A DNA stretch of 64,000 bases from a phage, in the sequence record PX104380.1; one strand, written 5' to 3'. The position numbers were made by a program, and so were the translations under genes. Positions 24,560-63,999 of the stretch are shown here, one piece after another (the stretch's first letter is position 1; the number at the start of each line of letters is the position of its first letter). The notes beneath the pieces are model-generated. The model did not search any database. It was not told the DNA's origin and saw only the letters and a program-made list of their open reading frames with translations.

Positions 24560-24796
24560 TTAACCACCTATTTGTGTAGGCGTAAACATTGCAGCATTCT
24601 TAGTTTTCCAAGTTGCTGCATCAGAAACTACAGTAGAATATGCCGCCTTTTCAGAAGGAAAGGTCTGATAATGAGAATCTGCAATACGATGCTCGTTAGA
24701 ATAAATTTCAAACGGAACAGAAACTTCCATACCTTTAACTTCTTTGCCTTCACCTGCTGGATGAGTAAAGGTCTTGATGTTAACGAAACCACCCAT
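24560..24796 (-). CDS. soc: Small outer capsid protein Soc
   Basis: 78 aa; VNIKTF...HYQTFPSEKAAYSTV matches remembered Soc core. Confidence 0.85.
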   Translation of the reverse strand: MGGFVNIKTFTHPAGEGKEVKGMEVSVPFEIYSNEHRIADSHYQTFPSEKAAYSTVVSDAATWKTKNAAMFTPTQIGG

Positions 24797-24827
24797 AATA
24801 AACTCCTTTATTGTTTAATTACAAGTG

Positions 24828-24835
24828 TATTTATA
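24828..24835 (-). promoter_or_regulatory. Late promoter TATAAATA for soc
   Basis: exact T4 late consensus on - strand about 30 nt upstream of soc ATG. Confidence 0.7.
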
Positions 24836-25667
24836 ATCCATTTTCAAATCTCTTTATCATGTTTATATAATTTTCGTCAGGATAACCTAGGCTAACTGCT
24901 AGTTTTCTAAAATTGACATATTTAGGTTTGTTGTTATTAATCCATAATTCTCTAAGCTCTTTTTCATAATTCCATTTAAGTTGATTTCTGCGTGCAGTTT
25001 TGCTTAAAGTTTTTCCTTTAGCTTTTAAAGCTTTTTCAGATGACTGTTTTAATTTTTGAATATTTAAAACTTCTTCTATAGATAAATTATTTTCCTTTGA
25101 ATATCTTATGCAAAAATCTTTTACTGCGGCTATTAGGCAATTTTTGTGAGTACCTAAAATTTCTGGGTTATTTTCTTCAACTAAAATTCCCCAATATCTT
25201 CGGTAGCGAGGCATATCTCTTGAAATCCAGTCATTATACCAAAAATCAAAGTTGGAATACATGAAAGATTTTCTTTTACGAAGAGTATCTTGGTTTATCC
25301 ATTGCTCACGTTTATCAGCCCATAACTTAATAGTAAAGTCTTTTTCTGAGTCAGAAAGCTTCTTAAATTGCGAGCTATTTACTGAGGTCATTCTCTGGAA
25401 TGCATTCAGCAATCCAAATCTTCCAGTTGAACATAAGAGATAGTGAACATATATGTGTTGATATATTGGGAGATATACTCTATTCCAAGGATGTATTTTA
25501 AAATCACTATACTCAGGAAATGCGCATTTAGGAAGTATATGATGGGCTTCTGTTTTAGATTTGATGTGAGTGTTTAACTTATATTTATCTATAATTTTTA
25601 AGTACTCATCTAAAAGTTCCCATTGCGGGAACTTTTCTTTAAGAGCAGATTTGAAATTAATATCCAT
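24831..25667 (-). CDS. HNH-family homing endonuclease-like protein (Mob-like)
   Basis: about 278 aa; HNH-like core EAHHILPKCAFPEY...HPWNRVYLPIYQHIYVH; sits between 56 and soc. Confidence 0.65.
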   Translation of the reverse strand: MDINFKSALKEKFPQWELLDEYLKIIDKYKLNTHIKSKTEAHHILPKCAFPEYSDFKIHPWNRVYLPIYQHIYVHYLLCSTGRFGLLNAFQRMTSVNSSQFKKLSDSEKDFTIKLWADKREQWINQDTLRKRKSFMYSNFDFWYNDWISRDMPRYRRYWGILVEENNPEILGTHKNCLIAAVKDFCIRYSKENNLSIEEVLNIQKLKQSSEKALKAKGKTLSKTARRNQLKWNYEKELRELWINNNKPKYVNFRKLAVSLGYPDENYINMIKRFENGL

Positions 25668-26175
25668 TATCTTGACGTTCAAAATTATGCTTGTTCTTCA
25701 GATAATAAAGTTTAAAGATTTCTTCAGCAGTAAGGCCGAGACCTTGGAACATGTTCAGAACGAAATGAAGAATATCAATCATTTCGAATTTAATTTCCAA
25801 CTGGTCTTGTGGAGACAAATCAGTAATCAGAGTTTCACGACGTTCACCATGCTGCGACTTCCAAGGCTTCCATACAGCAGATGCATCTTTTTCACCATTG
25901 CTCATACCACCAAGAGAAGTCAGAAGTTCACGGAATTCATCATCAATGTAATCTTTCTGATTACGCAGCCAATCGACAACTTCACCTGCAGTAGCCAAAT
26001 CATCAGGATGACGGTTATATTCAGGTTTATCTTTAGCTAAACGAACCTGCAGAGATTTCTGCATATCAAGCATAACTTGCAGTGGGTCTTTTTCATCACC
26101 GAGAATATCCCAGTATTCATTTTGAGCTTTATCAGCACCAGCGATCAGATGACTACATTCGTTGAAATGTGGCAT
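25657..26175 (-). CDS. 56: dCTP pyrophosphatase gp56 (MazG-like)
   Basis: 172 aa; MPHFNECSHLIAGADKAQNEYWDILGDEKDPLQVMLDMQ matches remembered T4 gp56. Confidence 0.92.
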   Translation of the reverse strand: MPHFNECSHLIAGADKAQNEYWDILGDEKDPLQVMLDMQKSLQVRLAKDKPEYNRHPDDLATAGEVVDWLRNQKDYIDDEFRELLTSLGGMSNGEKDASAVWKPWKSQHGERRETLITDLSPQDQLEIKFEMIDILHFVLNMFQGLGLTAEEIFKLYYLKNKHNFERQDNGY

Positions 26176-26218
26176 GTTATTTTTCCTTTCAATTCATGGG
26201 TTAGTAGATTAATTATAC

Positions 26219-39913: not shown

Positions 39914-40600
39914 TTAAAAATCGTGGGTAGAATCAGCTTCAAGAGCTACTACATAATTCGCGTGTTCACCTTCAAATTTAGCAGCACCTTGTTTACCTTT
40001 TGCCCAGAGCAGAAGTTTATAATTTCCTGGTTGCATTTTCATATTTGCCATATTGATAATGAAATTAAATGTATTTTCACCATCATAATCACCAAGAGTC
40101 AAAGAATATTTAACACGTGTCAGAGCAGAATCTTCTACTTTATTAAAACCGTTAATTACGATTTTACCTTCTTTTACCGTGATAGCAATTGTATCAATTT
40201 GCAGACCACGAGATACACGCAACAGTTGTTGAAGGTCTTCAGCTTTAATTTCAGTAACAACAGATGCTACCGGGAATGGAATTGGTTTATTAGGAGCAAC
40301 TACTGTACTCGGATCGGCTGCTGGCCAAAAAATTGTTGAACGGGCATCAGCAATTTTAATATTTCCATCTTCTGACTGGGAAATTTCTGCATCATCATTA
40401 ACTAGAGACAGAATACCGAGAAAACCGTTCAAATCGTAAATTGCTACATCAAAATCAATAGTGTCAGAAATATTTGCTTCCGCATAAGTTGTACCATTAA
40501 CTGCGCGAGTCATAATAAATTGACCGGATTTAAGCATAATACCGGAGTTAATAGTAGCGAAATTTTTCAAAATATTCAGTGTGTCTTTAGATAATTTCAT
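39914..40600 (-). CDS. 45: Sliding clamp gp45
   Basis: 228 aa; [64 protein letters not shown]. Confidence 0.95.
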   Translation of the reverse strand: MKLSKDTLNILKNFATINSGIMLKSGQFIMTRAVNGTTYAEANISDTIDFDVAIYDLNGFLGILSLVNDDAEISQSEDGNIKIADARSTIFWPAADPSTVVAPNKPIPFPVASVVTEIKAEDLQQLLRVSRGLQIDTIAITVKEGKIVINGFNKVEDSALTRVKYSLTLGDYDGENTFNFIINMANMKMQPGNYKLLLWAKGKQGAAKFEGEHANYVVALEADSTHDF

Positions 40601-41484
40601 TTCAATTTCCTATTTACATAATAGTTAGACCAGGACCGTACAGCACCCTGATAAGATTCGTCGTTAAACCCATTAGCTACTGCAATTTTACGAAATTTAT
40701 TATAACTCGGTTTTCCGTAAGCATGCCATAAAGATTTTAATTCATCTTCATGTTCAATCCAAGTTCCTCTAGCTTTAGATTTTCTAAATTTTGATTTGAA
40801 TTCCGGTGAATTATTTCTAACAGTTGCTTGAATTGAAGCTCTCTGTCTTCTTTCAGCATTATTCCATAACTCTTTTTGAGATTTAGAAATTTTTGATTTT
40901 ACACTTTCTGAATTCATTATATCACTAAACTTTTTAGCATAACTGCAATCAAGATATTTCAATTTCATCTTATTTGAAAGTTTAAGCTTTTTCTCATCGG
41001 TCCAGTGATTCTTCATTGAATTAGATATTTTGTATTTTACGTCAGAACTATGTTTGTAACCTTTACGAATACCAACATAATCGGGCGTAATTTCAGATTG
41101 CGAAAGCTTTACAATTTTTCCAGTTAAAACATTTTTATATGTTCCATATCCTTTAGCGCCAATTAAAGTATTTTCATCTGCGTATGCTTTATTAAAATAT
41201 TTTATATTACTTTTTGCTTTAACTTTTAATTGAAAAAATCTTTCCAATTTTCTTGGATCTAATATAGTTTCAGCTAAAATTTTGACGGTATATTTAGTGG
41301 TTTTAATAAGCTCAAAATATTCATCGCTATAACTCGATGACACGCTTCCAGTATAAATCTTTCCAGCTGAATCAATTATATTTGTTCCATCGAAAATTGC
41401 GTCAATTTTCGAACCTATATAATAACATGGAAAAATATTTTTAGCTTCCCGCTCTGGAAAGCTAATAAGATATACTAAATTCAT
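40597..41484 (-). CDS. GIY-YIG-like (Seg-type) homing endonuclease candidate between 45 and rpbA
   Basis: 295 aa; N-terminal VYLISF...YYIGSK resembles GIY-YIG; C-terminal module shared with two other endonuclease-like ORFs. Confidence 0.5.
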
Positions 41485-41870
41485 TTATTAAAATCAGCCA
41501 CAATTGTTTCCGCAACAAGTTGAGCAGCAACAATTAGACGTTCATCTGCATTACCGCAATAATCATCTTCAAGACGTTCACCGCATGAAGTCATAATAAA
41601 TTTAGCGCCAGCATTTAGAGATTCTGTCGTATGTTTACGCATTAGTTCAATCCATTTATCACTCACTTCACGATCGATAGCTTCATAATACGCATGACGA
41701 GCAGGTGCAGATTTAATTTTGTTCTGTATAACTTCCATTGCGTTATCAGAAAGAGACAAAACCCATGCTCGACGAATTTTATTTTGGTTTTGCGGATTTG
41801 ATTCAGAACGCACGTGTTTTGGCTGAATATCTTTTACATCAACAGTATAATTCACAGTAATTTTAGTCAT
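41481..41870 (-). CDS. rpbA: RNA polymerase-binding protein RpbA
   Basis: 129 aa between 45 and 46. Confidence 0.8.
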
Positions 41871-45448: not shown

Positions 45449-46649
45449 ATTTTGTAATAATGTCAAACTGTTCTTTAAAGCAGAAGCTTGAATCTTGATG
45501 CTGATACAAAAATTCATAAGCTTTTTCGCGTTCGCGGTCATAAAGAGTTCGGTCAGATGACAGTTCTTTAATACGCTCGAATGTTGATTCCATGTCATTT
45601 TCATCAAACCAAACGATACCGCTATCATGAGAAATTAATGGAGTGTTATCAACACGGAATTTTAAATTTTCGCCAGTAGATTTCCAAAATACCGGAATTG
45701 TTCCACATGCACCAAGCTCGAGATGAGTATATTCTAAAGAACGCTGTAGATATTTTTTGTCCAACTTACTCAGCTGATAACCAAAACCGGATTTACTCAT
45801 ACGTTCAAGCATTTCGCTATTTACATAACGGTCAAGAATTTGCGTTGGCAAATTAGGAGCAATTTTAATTTGGTCTACTTGATGAAGACGATAATACTCG
45901 TATGGAATTCCTTTTTCTTTAATAGGAATGAACGCTGGAGAACGTTCCAGACCTTCCATAATAGTACTTAGTCCTGCAGGTTTAAGATGTTTTTCATGAA
46001 AATCAAACATCTGATAAAAACCTTTCCATGTAGTCGTACGACCAATCCAACGGTTGATATTCATGTTAATTTCAGAAACATCTTTCCAGTAGGTTGACCG
46101 AACCTTCGCAATATCCATAGGAGGCTGAAAGTTATATACGGTCGGCGCTTCTTCAATATCATCAAACAGAGAAACAGTTTCTGGATACCATTCTTTCATC
46201 AGAACTTTATTAAAATCACCATTATCAGAATGGCTAAAAATAACATCAGCTCGACGAACAGTTTCTTCTAATCCCAAATTTCGACGCAAAGAAAGAGAAG
46301 AATGGTCGTGTTGATAAACTACAACACGAACAGAAGGTTTAATGTTATCAATAATTTTTTTATAGTTATTAATAGTGTCTTCTTCAACCGAAGTAGCAGG
46401 AACCGAATTGATAATTAGAATATCACAATCATTTACCAGCTTAAGTGTTTTATCGTATTCTTTTGCCAATAAAACCGGAATTGAAAATGATTTATAATCA
46501 TGCGCACAATTACGAGTAAATGATTTATCTTTAGCATAAACCAAAGTTACTTCATGACCATTTTTAATAAACCAATCACGTTGCTCAAGAGAAAATTTAG
46601 TTACACCACAACCTTCAAGACCTCGAGCCATAAAAATACATACTTTCAT
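45447..46649 (-). CDS. a-gt: DNA alpha-glucosyltransferase
   Basis: 400 aa; MKVCIFMARGLEGCGVTKFSLEQRDWFIKNGHEVTLVYAKDKSF matches remembered T4 alpha-gt. Confidence 0.93.
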   Translation of the reverse strand: MKVCIFMARGLEGCGVTKFSLEQRDWFIKNGHEVTLVYAKDKSFTRNCAHDYKSFSIPVLLAKEYDKTLKLVNDCDILIINSVPATSVEEDTINNYKKIIDNIKPSVRVVVYQHDHSSLSLRRNLGLEETVRRADVIFSHSDNGDFNKVLMKEWYPETVSLFDDIEEAPTVYNFQPPMDIAKVRSTYWKDVSEINMNINRWIGRTTTWKGFYQMFDFHEKHLKPAGLSTIMEGLERSPAFIPIKEKGIPYEYYRLHQVDQIKIAPNLPTQILDRYVNSEMLERMSKSGFGYQLSKLDKKYLQRSLEYTHLELGACGTIPVFWKSTGENLKFRVDNTPLISHDSGIVWFDENDMESTFERIKELSSDRTLYDREREKAYEFLYQHQDSSFCFKEQFDIITK

Positions 46650-50729: not shown

Positions 50730-51200
50730 TTAATCATGTGTCCACACCCCATCGGTATTTGACCAAAGTCGCTGATTATCTGATCCTCGCCACAGCTTTT
50801 TAGTCGGAAGATTTTTCTCATACTTCCCATCAATAATAACATCAACATATTTAAGCATTTCTAGTTGTTTAATATCTTCAAACTTATATCCTGTCCACAA
50901 CCAAATGCTTTTATTGGGATAAAGATTTTTAATAGTTTGAACCACAGAGTGAATCACGTCTCTGTTATCAGGATAAAGAGGGTCACCTCCGGTTATAGTT
51001 AATCCTTCTATATAATCATTATTCAAACATTCAATCAATTGTTCTAGTGTTTCACCAGTGAATGGAATACCATTTCTAGCATTCCATGTTGATTTATTAT
51101 AACACCCTTCGCATTTATGCAAACAACCTGTAACGAAAAGAACGACCCTGCATCCAGGGCCATTCACAAAGCAGCACGGGTATATTCTGTCATAATTCAT
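50730..51200 (-). CDS. nrdG: Anaerobic ribonucleotide reductase activase NrdG (radical SAM)
   Basis: 156 aa from ATG 51200; CxxxCxxC motif CLHKCEGCYNK. Confidence 0.88.
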   Translation of the reverse strand: MNYDRIYPCCFVNGPGCRVVLFVTGCLHKCEGCYNKSTWNARNGIPFTGETLEQLIECLNNDYIEGLTITGGDPLYPDNRDVIHSVVQTIKNLYPNKSIWLWTGYKFEDIKQLEMLKYVDVIIDGKYEKNLPTKKLWRGSDNQRLWSNTDGVWTHD

Positions 51201-52027
51201 AATAATATCCAATTTTTCCAAGCTTCATCAGTAGAATTACAGCGTTTTAGTATAAGATGTCTAGAAACTTTTATGGCATTTGAGCACTTTTTAATTGAAT
51301 CATATTTAATACCGTCAACTGAAACGGTTTTGCTCGTTGGAGAAATTTTTCCATACATTGGATTTTTTGAACCAACTTGAAGTCCTTTTAAAGCTTTTGA
51401 AAGCTTTTGTCTAGATTCCAATGACATGGGAGAATTCTTTTTACCTTCAATAATTCGCTTGCGATGAAGTTCGCGTTCTTCTTCGCTCAAAGAATTGTAA
51501 TATTTTTTAACACCGTTTGATATAGATAATTTATCTTTCTCAGACCGCTCTCCAACTAATTTACTTCTAACATCTTTTCGCTTCATAGCTATGCTTACAG
51601 CTTTATTTAAATTTGCTTGATGCTCTGGCGTACGTTTATATTTCTTTAAAGCACGTGAAATAGCTATTTTAGTTTCTACTGTTTTCTTTTTACCTTTATT
51701 TGCTAAACTATTTTTGTGGCGATGTTCAAGTGTCTGTTCATAAGCAGTTCCACCTTTTCCACCGGGTTTAATATTATATGTATTTTCTTTTAGACAATAC
51801 TCTTCGGTTACAAGTTCAGCTTCTTTATCATACATTTGTTTTTCATTATCAAAAACATGTAAAATTTCTTTATTAAAATTTTTTCTACCATATTTTAATA
51901 AAGCGGCACGAATCAATGTTCCTGATCCCATATAACCGTCATTTATGTTATCGGTGCTATGCGCACCGATATATTCCTTTGAATTAATTATATTTGTTAT
52001 TTTATAAATTATATAATACCTATGCAT
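51197..52027 (-). CDS. GIY-YIG homing endonuclease (I-TevI/Seg-like), free-standing between nrdD and nrdG
   Basis: 276 aa; N-terminal YYIIYKITNIINSKEYIGAHS...YMGSG; basic NUMOD-like repeats; overlaps nrdD stop by 8 nt and nrdG start. Confidence 0.72.
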   Translation of the reverse strand: MHRYYIIYKITNIINSKEYIGAHSTDNINDGYMGSGTLIRAALLKYGRKNFNKEILHVFDNEKQMYDKEAELVTEEYCLKENTYNIKPGGKGGTAYEQTLEHRHKNSLANKGKKKTVETKIAISRALKKYKRTPEHQANLNKAVSIAMKRKDVRSKLVGERSEKDKLSISNGVKKYYNSLSEEERELHRKRIIEGKKNSPMSLESRQKLSKALKGLQVGSKNPMYGKISPTSKTVSVDGIKYDSIKKCSNAIKVSRHLILKRCNSTDEAWKNWILL

Positions 52028-61620: not shown

Positions 61621-62340
61621 TTAGGATTCTTCTAAATGTCTTTTCTGAAAAGTTGATACCATACTACGATACGGTTCATTTGGATACCCGTGTTTTATAG
61701 CTTCCTTTGTAAATTTTCTCCATCCATATTTAGTTTCTTTCCAAAGCTCGAATAATTCATCTTCATACTGCCATATAGTTAAATGAGAACGCTTTGCAGC
61801 TTTAATTCCATTAATATGCTTTTCTTTTACTACAGGATTGCTTAGTTTCTTTTTAATAATATTACTAACTTTTCTAACAAAAACTGGGTCCTTATATCGT
61901 TGCGAAGTTTTTATTGAAGTGTTTAATTTAGCTTCCGGTGTGGATGTGACCTCTTTCATCTTTTTCTTCATATGCTGTATATGATTAGGATTTTTCCATA
62001 AATTTATAGAATGCTTTTTGCATTTTATCCTAGTTTCATCTGCAACCTTTCCTCCTTCACCTCCGTATGACAGGTTAACACAGTTTTTTCCATATTTCAA
62101 TTTACCTGCCATGATATATAATATTTCAGCTTGTACCATTTTATCATAATTATCAAAAACTTCTAAAACCGTTTTTGATAATATGTGGTCATTTGACACT
62201 TTTACACGTTCTATATAATTTCCACTACCAACATACGAATCATTGATGTTATTAGTTATATGTCGACCATAATAGTATTTCTTAATACCTGTCTTTAAAT
62301 TTAATATTTCAGTTTTATAGATAGTAAAATATTTTTTCAT
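61621..62340 (-). CDS. GIY-YIG (Seg-like) homing endonuclease candidate
   Basis: 239 aa; N-terminal YFTIYKTEILN...YYYGRH...YVGSG; C-terminal module shared with ORFs at 24831 and 40597. Confidence 0.6.
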   Translation of the reverse strand: MKKYFTIYKTEILNLKTGIKKYYYGRHITNNINDSYVGSGNYIERVKVSNDHILSKTVLEVFDNYDKMVQAEILYIMAGKLKYGKNCVNLSYGGEGGKVADETRIKCKKHSINLWKNPNHIQHMKKKMKEVTSTPEAKLNTSIKTSQRYKDPVFVRKVSNIIKKKLSNPVVKEKHINGIKAAKRSHLTIWQYEDELFELWKETKYGWRKFTKEAIKHGYPNEPYRSMVSTFQKRHLEES

Positions 62341-63305
62341 TTTAATAATACCGTTTCAGCAATTTCTTCCCAATGATTTTTGTCGGTCATAATAAAGTCA
62401 GCAAGATAAAGAGCAGTACGCAGTGAAACATTGCGTAAACGATTAACATTGACTTTCATCCATGATAATGCTTTATAAGTTTCTTCATCAGAAAGACCGC
62501 GCTTTTGCATCATGTCAGTTGAAAGAATAACATCTTCAACCCTGACCATAATTTCTTCATTAGTGTGAACACCCAAATCCAAATAAACTGAGCGGGACAC
62601 TAATGCTTGTAAATGTGGAGCAAGTTTAGTACCACGGTCTAATTCGCGGTCAATGTCAACGTTTGTGATAAAAACAATCGTTCCTTTAAATTCAAACTCA
62701 CGCTCAATGCCTTTTTCTTCTAAGTAAGAAGATGCGGTGCTCCAGCAGACTTTACGGGTCTCTCCAGTGTCCAGAGCAGCTTTCAGAAGATTAAGAATGT
62801 CCATATCAGAGAAAACATCCACATCATCAATCAAAAGGACAGAATTCTCTTCACGATTATTCCAAAGCTGTTCATAAAGACCGATACCAGAGATTTTACC
62901 ATTAATGCTTTTATACTCAATGTATCCAATATCATTTGCTTTATTTAAAGCTTTATCTAAAGAATACGTTTTACCAATACCCGCCGCGCCAGAGATAATT
63001 AATGAACGAATGTTTCCGTTAATAATACCATTCGTCATCATTCCCATAACATTAAATCTTTTATTAATGCGGGTTTTCATATCTTCATACGATTCTTTAA
63101 CTTCTTCAACTTTTACACCATCATATGAAATGTCTGATTTGTAAACCCAAACACCGCGACGTTTACCGTCAATTTCAACAAAAACTTTACCATCTCCTTG
63201 TGCATCTACTGGAGCATTATCAGGGAACCACTCACCTAAGAGTTCAAAGGTTCCAGAGATTTCTTTGCCAAAGTAAATACCCTTATTGATAGTTACAGTT
63301 TTCAT
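62337..63305 (-). CDS. P-loop NTPase (AAA-like)
   Basis: 322 aa from ATG 63305; Walker A GAAGIGKT, Walker B LLIDDVD; track extension reads through a terminator hairpin. Confidence 0.55.
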   Translation of the reverse strand: MKTVTINKGIYFGKEISGTFELLGEWFPDNAPVDAQGDGKVFVEIDGKRRGVWVYKSDISYDGVKVEEVKESYEDMKTRINKRFNVMGMMTNGIINGNIRSLIISGAAGIGKTYSLDKALNKANDIGYIEYKSINGKISGIGLYEQLWNNREENSVLLIDDVDVFSDMDILNLLKAALDTGETRKVCWSTASSYLEEKGIEREFEFKGTIVFITNVDIDRELDRGTKLAPHLQALVSRSVYLDLGVHTNEEIMVRVEDVILSTDMMQKRGLSDEETYKALSWMKVNVNRLRNVSLRTALYLADFIMTDKNHWEEIAETVLLK

Positions 63306-63333
63306 TTTATTCTCCAAATCTGTATCAGTTGAT

Positions 63334-63390
63334 AGTTGTATAGTACCATAAAGCTTTATGCTTGTAAACAACTTTGTGAAAAATTTTTGA
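63334..63390 (-). promoter_or_regulatory. Early promoter module
   Basis: GTTTAC (63364-63369), 18-bp spacer, TGGTACTAT (63340-63348). Confidence 0.6.
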
Positions 63391-63419
63391 AATAAAAAAA
63401 GGGAGCCCGAAGGCTCCCT
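63391..63419 (-). terminator. Intrinsic terminator
   Basis: - strand GGGAGCC-TTCG-GGCTCCC followed by TTTTTTTATTT. Confidence 0.75.
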
Positions 63420-63420
63420 A

Positions 63421-63999
63421 TCATTTATAATAACTTCGATGGTTTTCAAGATAGACCTTCTCAAGGAAGTCATCCCAGAAACTCATATCTACCTTATCAG
63501 GCATACCGTTCTTAGAAGCTTCAGTAGATGCTGCTTCTACTTGATCAACCACATCTTCCAAAAACTCTTGAACTGTTTTAAATGGATGTTTACCCAGCTT
63601 CACGTCGAGAATAAATGGAGCATCTTGAAGTGGATAAATTAAGTCGCCAGTTTTGTAAATTTCCAATAGTTGGAGTCCACCACGACAAGCATGACTCAAA
63701 GCTTTCCAGTCAATGCCTTCATTGGCTTCGGCTTTACGAGCACGTTCACCGTATTCAGCATCTAATTTGTTCAGTGACTGCTTAAGCTCAATAAGAGAAA
63801 GCGTTGTCTGATATTTACGACCCAACACAGTGTAGAACGTTTGTGGGCCTGTTTTCTCATGATTATGGAACACCCATTCACAGAATTCGTTTTCTGGAAG
63901 ACGATGCTTAATATCTTCAATTTTAGTGCGACGTTGTCCTTGTGTTCCATCTTCTCGGTAGACATTCCGTTGATCAGGAATTTGATTAATTACTTTCAA
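63421..63999 (-). CDS. Hypothetical protein, probably N-terminally truncated by window edge
   Basis: ORF runs to window end; the first codon is TTG. Confidence 0.45.
   Translation of the reverse strand: MKVINQIPDQRNVYREDGTQGQRRTKIEDIKHRLPENEFCEWVFHNHEKTGPQTFYTVLGRKYQTTLSLIELKQSLNKLDAEYGERARKAEANEGIDWKALSHACRGGLQLLEIYKTGDLIYPLQDAPFILDVKLGKHPFKTVQEFLEDVVDQVEAASTEASKNGMPDKVDMSFWDDFLEKVYLENHRSYYK

Follow-up and report, generated by a model that had tools for sequence, protein, structure and literature searches.

The 64,000 nucleotides analysed here, referred to below as the window, are part of a Tequatrovirus (T4-like) genome, sequence record PX104380.1, with T4-like gene order: soc, 56, ... 43, regA, 62, 44, 45, rpbA, 46, 47, ... 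nrdG, nrdD, ... nrdC.9-11. Interspersed in this order are three ORFs, all on the minus strand and with coordinates verified by translation: p1 (40597-41484, 295 aa), p2 (24831-25667 when read from ATG, 278 aa) and p3 (61621-62340, 239 aa). The DNA around them is 97-99% identical to that of many T-even-type phages of Escherichia, Shigella and Yersinia. Each of the three is labelled 'homing endonuclease' by PHROGs, and their sequences mark them as free-standing homing endonuclease genes such as T-even-type phages carry, with homing activity of p1, p2 and p3 themselves being presumed.

The gene p1 (40597-41484, minus strand) encodes a SegG-type GIY-YIG core, a helical linker and a C-terminal module, and is squeezed between rpbA and gene 45 with start/stop overlaps, ATGA, at either end. 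Comparison with T4 by blastn places it in an 875-bp segment (40612-41486) where T4 has 51 bp of 45-rpbA intergenic DNA, homology breaking at 40612 and 41486 with flanks that are 97% identical. Its catalytic domain, residues ~1-104 (41173-41484, minus strand), is homologous to N-terminal residues 1-102 of T4 SegG (E 1.1e-15) and contains the GIY-YIG motifs VYLISF...YYIGSK. Of the catalytic Arg, Glu and Asn of GIY-YIG enzymes, an alignment of p1-type proteins has an invariant Glu (E80) and an invariant Asn (N97), and no invariant Arg at the position of I-TevI R27. Inspected by eye, the N-termini of T4 SegA and SegE are likewise without an obvious Arg there, and since both are given as demonstrated endonucleases (PMC2330249), its lack need not disqualify p1 or p3. 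The basic linker, residues ~142-232 (40789-41061, minus strand), has six predicted helices (AF2, 146-232) and repeats of the S..K.S...K..W type whose resemblance to NUMOD3 is weak (Pfam E=0.65, below threshold). Repeated basic helical units, S..K.S...K..W..pE.R, are present in the linkers of both p1 (~142-232) and p3 (~100-180), and may be a variant repeat type. Just past the rpbA stop, within p1 codons 7-15, there is a terminator-like hairpin (41441-41465, minus strand) made up of a 10-bp stem and a T-run after it, by which p1 expression might be limited.

A MobD-like HNH homing endonuclease gene, p2 (24831-25667, minus strand), occupies the soc-56 slot, which in T4 is that of segF, and its overlap with gene 56 is 11 nt, the same as that of segF with gene 56 in T4. 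Its frame is open to an upstream TTG at 25682, with the ATG at 25667 as the alternative start; the latter is likelier because the closest homologue, P0005, begins MDINFKS. The HNH motif region, AHHILPK...WNRVYL...QHIYVH (25431-25547, minus strand), was identified from the sequence, from the match to PHROG 12434 'HNH endonuclease' (E 4e-10) and by comparison with MobA-E, the HH...N...H beta-beta-alpha-metal motif aligning by eye with their HHIIP...NLV.L...EH..AH. T4 MobD aligns over nearly the whole length of p2 (phmmer 1.5e-8), there are weaker matches to MobA, MobB and MobE, and none of the Pfam HNH models matches p2 at E<=1. In the surrounding segment (24676-26197) the gene 56 next to p2 is just 79% identical to T4 gene 56, and flanks elsewhere are ~97% identical; such local divergence would be of the kind expected around an endonuclease target.

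Between nrdC.9 and nrdC.10 lies p3 (61621-62340, minus strand), a SegA/SegE-type GIY-YIG homing endonuclease gene which is RB32ORF093c and in some records bears the annotation 'segE'. Its core, with the motifs FTIYKT...YYYGRH, matches T4 SegE, SegA and SegB at E ~1e-12. The gene lies in a 733-bp segment (61625-62357) where T4 has 37 bp at the nrdC.9-nrdC.10 junction, again with 97% identical flanks in the blastn comparison. The start of p3 overlaps by 4 nt the stop of a gene at 62337-63473 (minus strand); at 378 aa that ORF exceeds T4 nrdC.10 (322 aa), and, judging by alignment with T4, its true start is probably an internal ATG near 63306 (MKTVTINKG...). A fourth free-standing endonuclease gene of the window, SegC/SegD-like and GIY-YIG (51197-52027, minus strand; E 3e-39 to T4 SegC), is in the nrdD-nrdG slot where T4 has mobC, an HNH gene. 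Its core is paralogous to that of p3, and its further parts are NUMOD3-like repeats and an HTH tail of NUMOD1 type.

The GIY-YIG three-dimensional fold is found in both p1 and p3, and their cores, as classed by homology, are of two distinct subtypes. The original prediction that the nucleases of the set come from two catalytic families is correct because the cores of p1 and p3 match Segs (SegG for p1, SegE/SegA/SegB for p3) and p2 matches MobD with the HH...N...H motif. As related genomes indicate, all three genes behave as mobile insertions: nearly the whole query stretch is present in few related phage records (25 of 626 for p1, 29 of 748 for p2, 65 of 644 for p3), and p1 and p3 are, relative to T4, polymorphic in presence or absence at an intergenic site between conserved genes.

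That one HNH-like and two GIY-YIG-like ORFs of this genome end in a related block was the starting claim, and both BLASTP and profile comparison bear it out with a block of ~50 residues common to the three. It occupies residues 232-295 of p1 (40600-40791, minus strand; helices ~241-255, 261-270 and 279-292 from AlphaFold), 24834-24998 in p2 (minus strand; TARRNQLKWNYEKELRELWINNNKPKYVNFRKLAVSLGYPDENYINMIKRFENGL) and 61624-61800 in p3 (minus strand). In compositionally adjusted BLASTP, pairwise similarity is limited to the C-terminal ~45-80 residues: p1-p2, E=2e-8 with 42% identity over 43 aa; p1-p3, E=3e-5; p2-p3, E=7e-9 with 39% identity over 80 aa. A profile of 103 family members (see below) matches the window, translated in all six frames, exactly three times, with E 7e-25 for p2, 4e-21 for p1 and 9e-20 for p3, and no further match below E=0.5; the tail of the fourth endonuclease is thus without the module. 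The consensus is R-k-x3-W-x2-y-d-E-L-y-x-L-W-x2-n-g-k-P-x3-k-F-r-k-i-A-v-x-n-G-Y-P-D-x-s-Y-x2-m-v-x2-F. Similarity confined to low-complexity basic residues is not what is seen: the conserved positions, W, L, W, P, F, A, G, Y, P, D, Y, M/I and F, are aromatic and hydrophobic columns which form a hydrophobic core pattern.

How widespread is the module? When 1.8 billion representative proteins, clustered at 50% identity, were searched exhaustively with a profile, 103 clusters had the module at E<1e-3, 28 of them at E<1e-10. (A word-indexed search of a large protein collection with the alignment of the three tails gave no match, the index being too coarse for 60-residue queries.) With tblastn the module is found in 281 and 354 phage records, depending on which of two queries is used; among the matches listed all are phages of Gammaproteobacteria of ~155-260 kb, mostly about 165-177 kb, with hosts that include Escherichia, Klebsiella, Edwardsiella, Aeromonas, Acinetobacter, Shewanella, Proteus and others. 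Across phage records and representative proteins there is an apparent limitation of the module to T4-like phages. Conservation on this scale marks the block as a genuine domain family. That the three tails are rich in lysine and arginine and the region AT-rich might have suggested chance or low-complexity composition as the source of their resemblance, or else recent gene conversion among paralogues in this genome, but such explanations have a negligible probability: the E-values are from compositionally adjusted BLASTP, W/L/W/F/G/Y/P/D/Y columns are conserved, chance would hardly give 103 clusters from 1.8 billion proteins and 354 phage records with the module, and the three window copies are mutually just 28-42% identical, which argues against gene conversion and means that there has been no recent exchange among the tails of p1, p2 and p3 in this genome.

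Counted by hand from motifs and from homology to p1, p2 and p3, the N-termini of the 103 clusters are GIY-YIG in ~43 and HNH in ~33, with most of the others being short fragments. The module is characteristically terminal, a median of 1 residue separating its end from the C-terminus, and is present in 1-3 tandem copies per protein, many having two or three. NUMOD3 is found upstream, in the linker, in 25 of the 102 full-length module proteins. The most compact architecture seen is that of a protein from a cultured phage, Dhakavirus IME281 gp048 (L012 1707-2357; 216 aa, annotated 'hypothetical protein'), in which two tandem modules follow the GIY-YIG domain immediately, without a linker. Among T4 proteins the profile matches MobD (1.6e-22), SegA (4e-19) and SegF (2.6e-7), the second and third of which are given as demonstrated homing endonucleases (PMC2330249), and it matches none of the other twelve T4 homing endonuclease genes, the C-terminus of SegG giving E 0.24. 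A possible formulation for p2 and T4 SegF, 'same soc-56 slot, same tail', had to be dropped, as the module of p2 matches those of SegA and MobD and not that of SegF at E<0.01. A weak profile match near 46055 (plus strand) of T4, E 0.007, in the frd.1-frd.2 region and on the strand opposite the annotated genes, is probably spurious.

Complete ORFs consisting of modules alone, with no nuclease, were also encountered, on metagenome contigs from T4-like phages (L007 2433-2798; L009 2363-3606). One of them, P0007 on L007, has 121 aa and 2 modules and is beside gene 5; the other, P0050 on L009, has 201 aa and 3 modules and directly follows a 213-aa ORF for a GIY-YIG domain plus one module, downstream of a gp39-like topoisomerase gene. 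ORFs of this type may be decayed endonuclease genes or may encode free DNA-binding proteins.

Catalogued domains offer no sequence-level counterpart. No Pfam model covers the module in either the 102 full-length proteins or the 103 isolated modules, NCBIfam has no model for it, and a profile search of PDB sequences gave nothing significant; a RAMP (CRISPR-associated) protein, considered as a PDB relative, was dismissed since its match of 26 residues at E 0.8 is non-significant. The obvious comparison is with the NUMODs. The Pfam NUMOD1 model matches none of the 103 modules at E<=1, and hhalign against seven NUMOD1 tails (I-TevI, I-TevII, SegC, SegD, MobB, MobC and the ORF at 51197-52027) gives a probability of 1%; NUMOD1 is a strand plus HTH, whereas the module, from a different sequence family, is a bundle of three helices, the second and third joined by a long loop. 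NUMOD3 (PF07460), a minor-groove helix, matches inside the module in just 2 of the 103 isolated copies, and weakly (E 0.043). I-Bth0305I, the Vsr-type enzyme of Bacillus phage 0305phi8-36, also has small helical tandem DNA-binding repeats on a homing nuclease, but these repeats, described as NUMOD2-like, are classical short-turn HTHs (S..ELA...GIS) and N-terminal, unlike the module (PMC3239194). The module profile does not match I-Bth0305I even at E<=1000, the comparison being with that protein and not with the original 2003 NUMOD2 block. The C-terminal regions of Mob proteins have been termed 'specific to each protein' (PMC2790892), and the literature on T4 endonucleases, exclusive of the 2003 NUMOD and original Seg papers, does not mention the sharing of a tail by MobD, SegA and SegF. 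A second shared tail, in MobA and SegG, was considered because of 'GWIP' in both, and BLASTP found no alignment between them at E<=100.

AlphaFold, run on the 103-sequence alignment, predicts three helices with a mean pLDDT of 83, rising to >90 through the core, and an independent model of full-length p1 has the same three helices. The predicted module superposes on DNA-bound three-helix bundles of homeodomain and Myb type, and the structures that it matches best are HTH domains in complex with DNA. In a domain as small as this, however, this predicted homeodomain/Myb-like character should be taken as a resemblance of fold only: the likeness to homeodomains, to Myb-SANT and to the transposases TnsB, IstA and Tc3 is at fold level alone, with 5-14% sequence identity, and PDB profile and Pfam searches detected no relation to these domains at the sequence level. 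The net charge of the module averages +4.4 and is positive in 91% of copies, with conserved basic residues at positions 7-8 before helix 1, at position 27 before helix 2 and in the K-F-R-K with which helix 2 opens. Conservation also marks the hydrophobic core; variability is among the highest at those helix 3 positions that face the solvent.

This charge, the conserved basic residues, the basic linker, the tandem copies and a position corresponding to that of the DNA-binding domains of I-TevI and I-HmuI (PMC2988022) make a DNA anchor the best-supported reading of the modelled module, its specificity putatively coming from helix 3 or from the basic arm. Counting against this reading, helices 2 and 3 are separated by a loop (G-Y-P-D-x-x-Y) that exceeds the turn of a classical helix-turn-helix in length. 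There is a further constraint on how such an anchor might work. The major groove of T-even DNA contains glucosylated hydroxymethylcytosine, and it is chiefly the minor groove that T4 endonucleases are believed to read (PMC2330249), which makes a major-groove recognition helix awkward. One could instead suppose that the module mediates protein-protein interaction or dimerisation, for instance by pairing nicking HNH monomers or by recruitment to the replication or recombination machinery. This seems unlikely, since 91% of modules are strongly positive, the module sits where the DNA-binding domains of I-TevI and I-HmuI do, its best structural matches are DNA-bound HTH domains, and 1-3 tandem copies on GIY-YIG enzymes of monomeric type suit DNA-binding beads better than a dimer interface.

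Alternatively the module might bind DNA mainly for regulation, by autorepression at an operator, or for protection of target sites, instead of for choice of the cleavage site. [quoted passage not shown] Yet the module is nearly always fused to a nuclease, and ORFs with modules alone could be decayed remnants of endonuclease genes, that for P0050 being directly after one for a GIY-YIG-plus-module protein, so that a mainly regulatory function has to be considered very unlikely.

Our preferred reading, to which we give a probability of roughly three in four, is that these are bipartite homing endonucleases in which a nuclease core is combined with a putative DNA-anchor module that has been repeatedly exchanged. 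It is in keeping with the general model of phage homing endonucleases as bipartite proteins with DNA-binding modules like beads on a string (PMC2988022, PMC1564403). The N-terminal domain, GIY-YIG of either subtype or HNH, would do the cutting, and the basic helical linker would connect it to the C-terminal three-helix module of about 50 residues, whose basic N-terminal arm (R/K at positions 7-8) and helix 2 start (K-F-R-K) would hold the backbone or the minor groove. On mixed infection a relative without the gene would be cut and repaired from the genome that carries it, the gene and nearby markers thereby being copied. Within T4-like phages the module would have been swapped repeatedly between nuclease classes, with tandem duplication also possible.

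The proposal that the tail became joined to different nuclease cores by domain shuffling finds support both in modules whose nearest neighbours cross nuclease class and in like cores that have other tails. One genome has the same tail on three cores that are unrelated or distantly related. Conversely, cores of the same kinds have other tails in the ORF at 51197-52027, in T4 SegG, whose core is homologous to the p1 catalytic domain and whose C-terminus is without a module match, and in P0107 and P0108, where a p1 (SegG-type) core is followed by a Cys/His-rich, zinc-finger-like tail in place of the module. The nearest module neighbour is on the other nuclease class in 28 of 90 cases, including reciprocal pairs at ~50% identity. 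Nearest neighbours of the same class number 62 of 90, against 46 +/- 6 expected under shuffling, so exchange between classes has not been free, modules partly clustering by nuclease class. Several exchanges explain the pattern better than one, as far as can be read from the noisy picture that 50-residue sequences provide.

Modular reuse across nuclease classes is a principle known since the work on NUMOD, I-TevI and I-HmuI, in which the same logic applies, a nuclease being tethered to a series of small modules for DNA binding that are shared by different catalytic families (PMC2988022, PMC1564403, PMC2677866). T4 SegA and SegF (GIY-YIG) and MobD (HNH) have the same C-terminal module as p1, p2 and p3 and the same life style of intergenic insertion in T-even genomes, but the window genes are at other loci, 45-rpbA, nrdC.9-nrdC.10 and the soc-56 slot that is segF's in T4, and the combination of a SegG-type core with the module, as in p1, is absent from T4. 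What appears to be new is that there is a further, distinct type of module, that SegA, SegF and MobD have it, that it forms tandem arrays and that it seems limited to T4-like phages.

Modular DNA-binding tails give phage homing endonucleases long, tolerant target sites, and engineered nucleases have been built with modules of the I-TevI type. The general understanding of homing elements is unchanged by the present module, which adds a distinct type to the tail repertoire of homing endonucleases and does so in SegA, SegF and MobD, whose C-termini the literature cited here treats as unrelated or protein-specific. It also provides an annotation handle for many phage ORFs now termed 'hypothetical protein', IME281 gp048 among them, and the presence of one tail on three nuclease cores in one genome is a natural experiment on target recognition versus cleavage chemistry. 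A bolder version, possible though doubtful, is that the module is an uncatalogued homeodomain-like DNA-binding family apparently confined to T4-like phages (Straboviridae), whose beads would each read a short segment of DNA and whose module-only proteins might be regulators or shields of target sites against homing. If so, T4-like phages would possess a natural, recombinable kit for DNA recognition.
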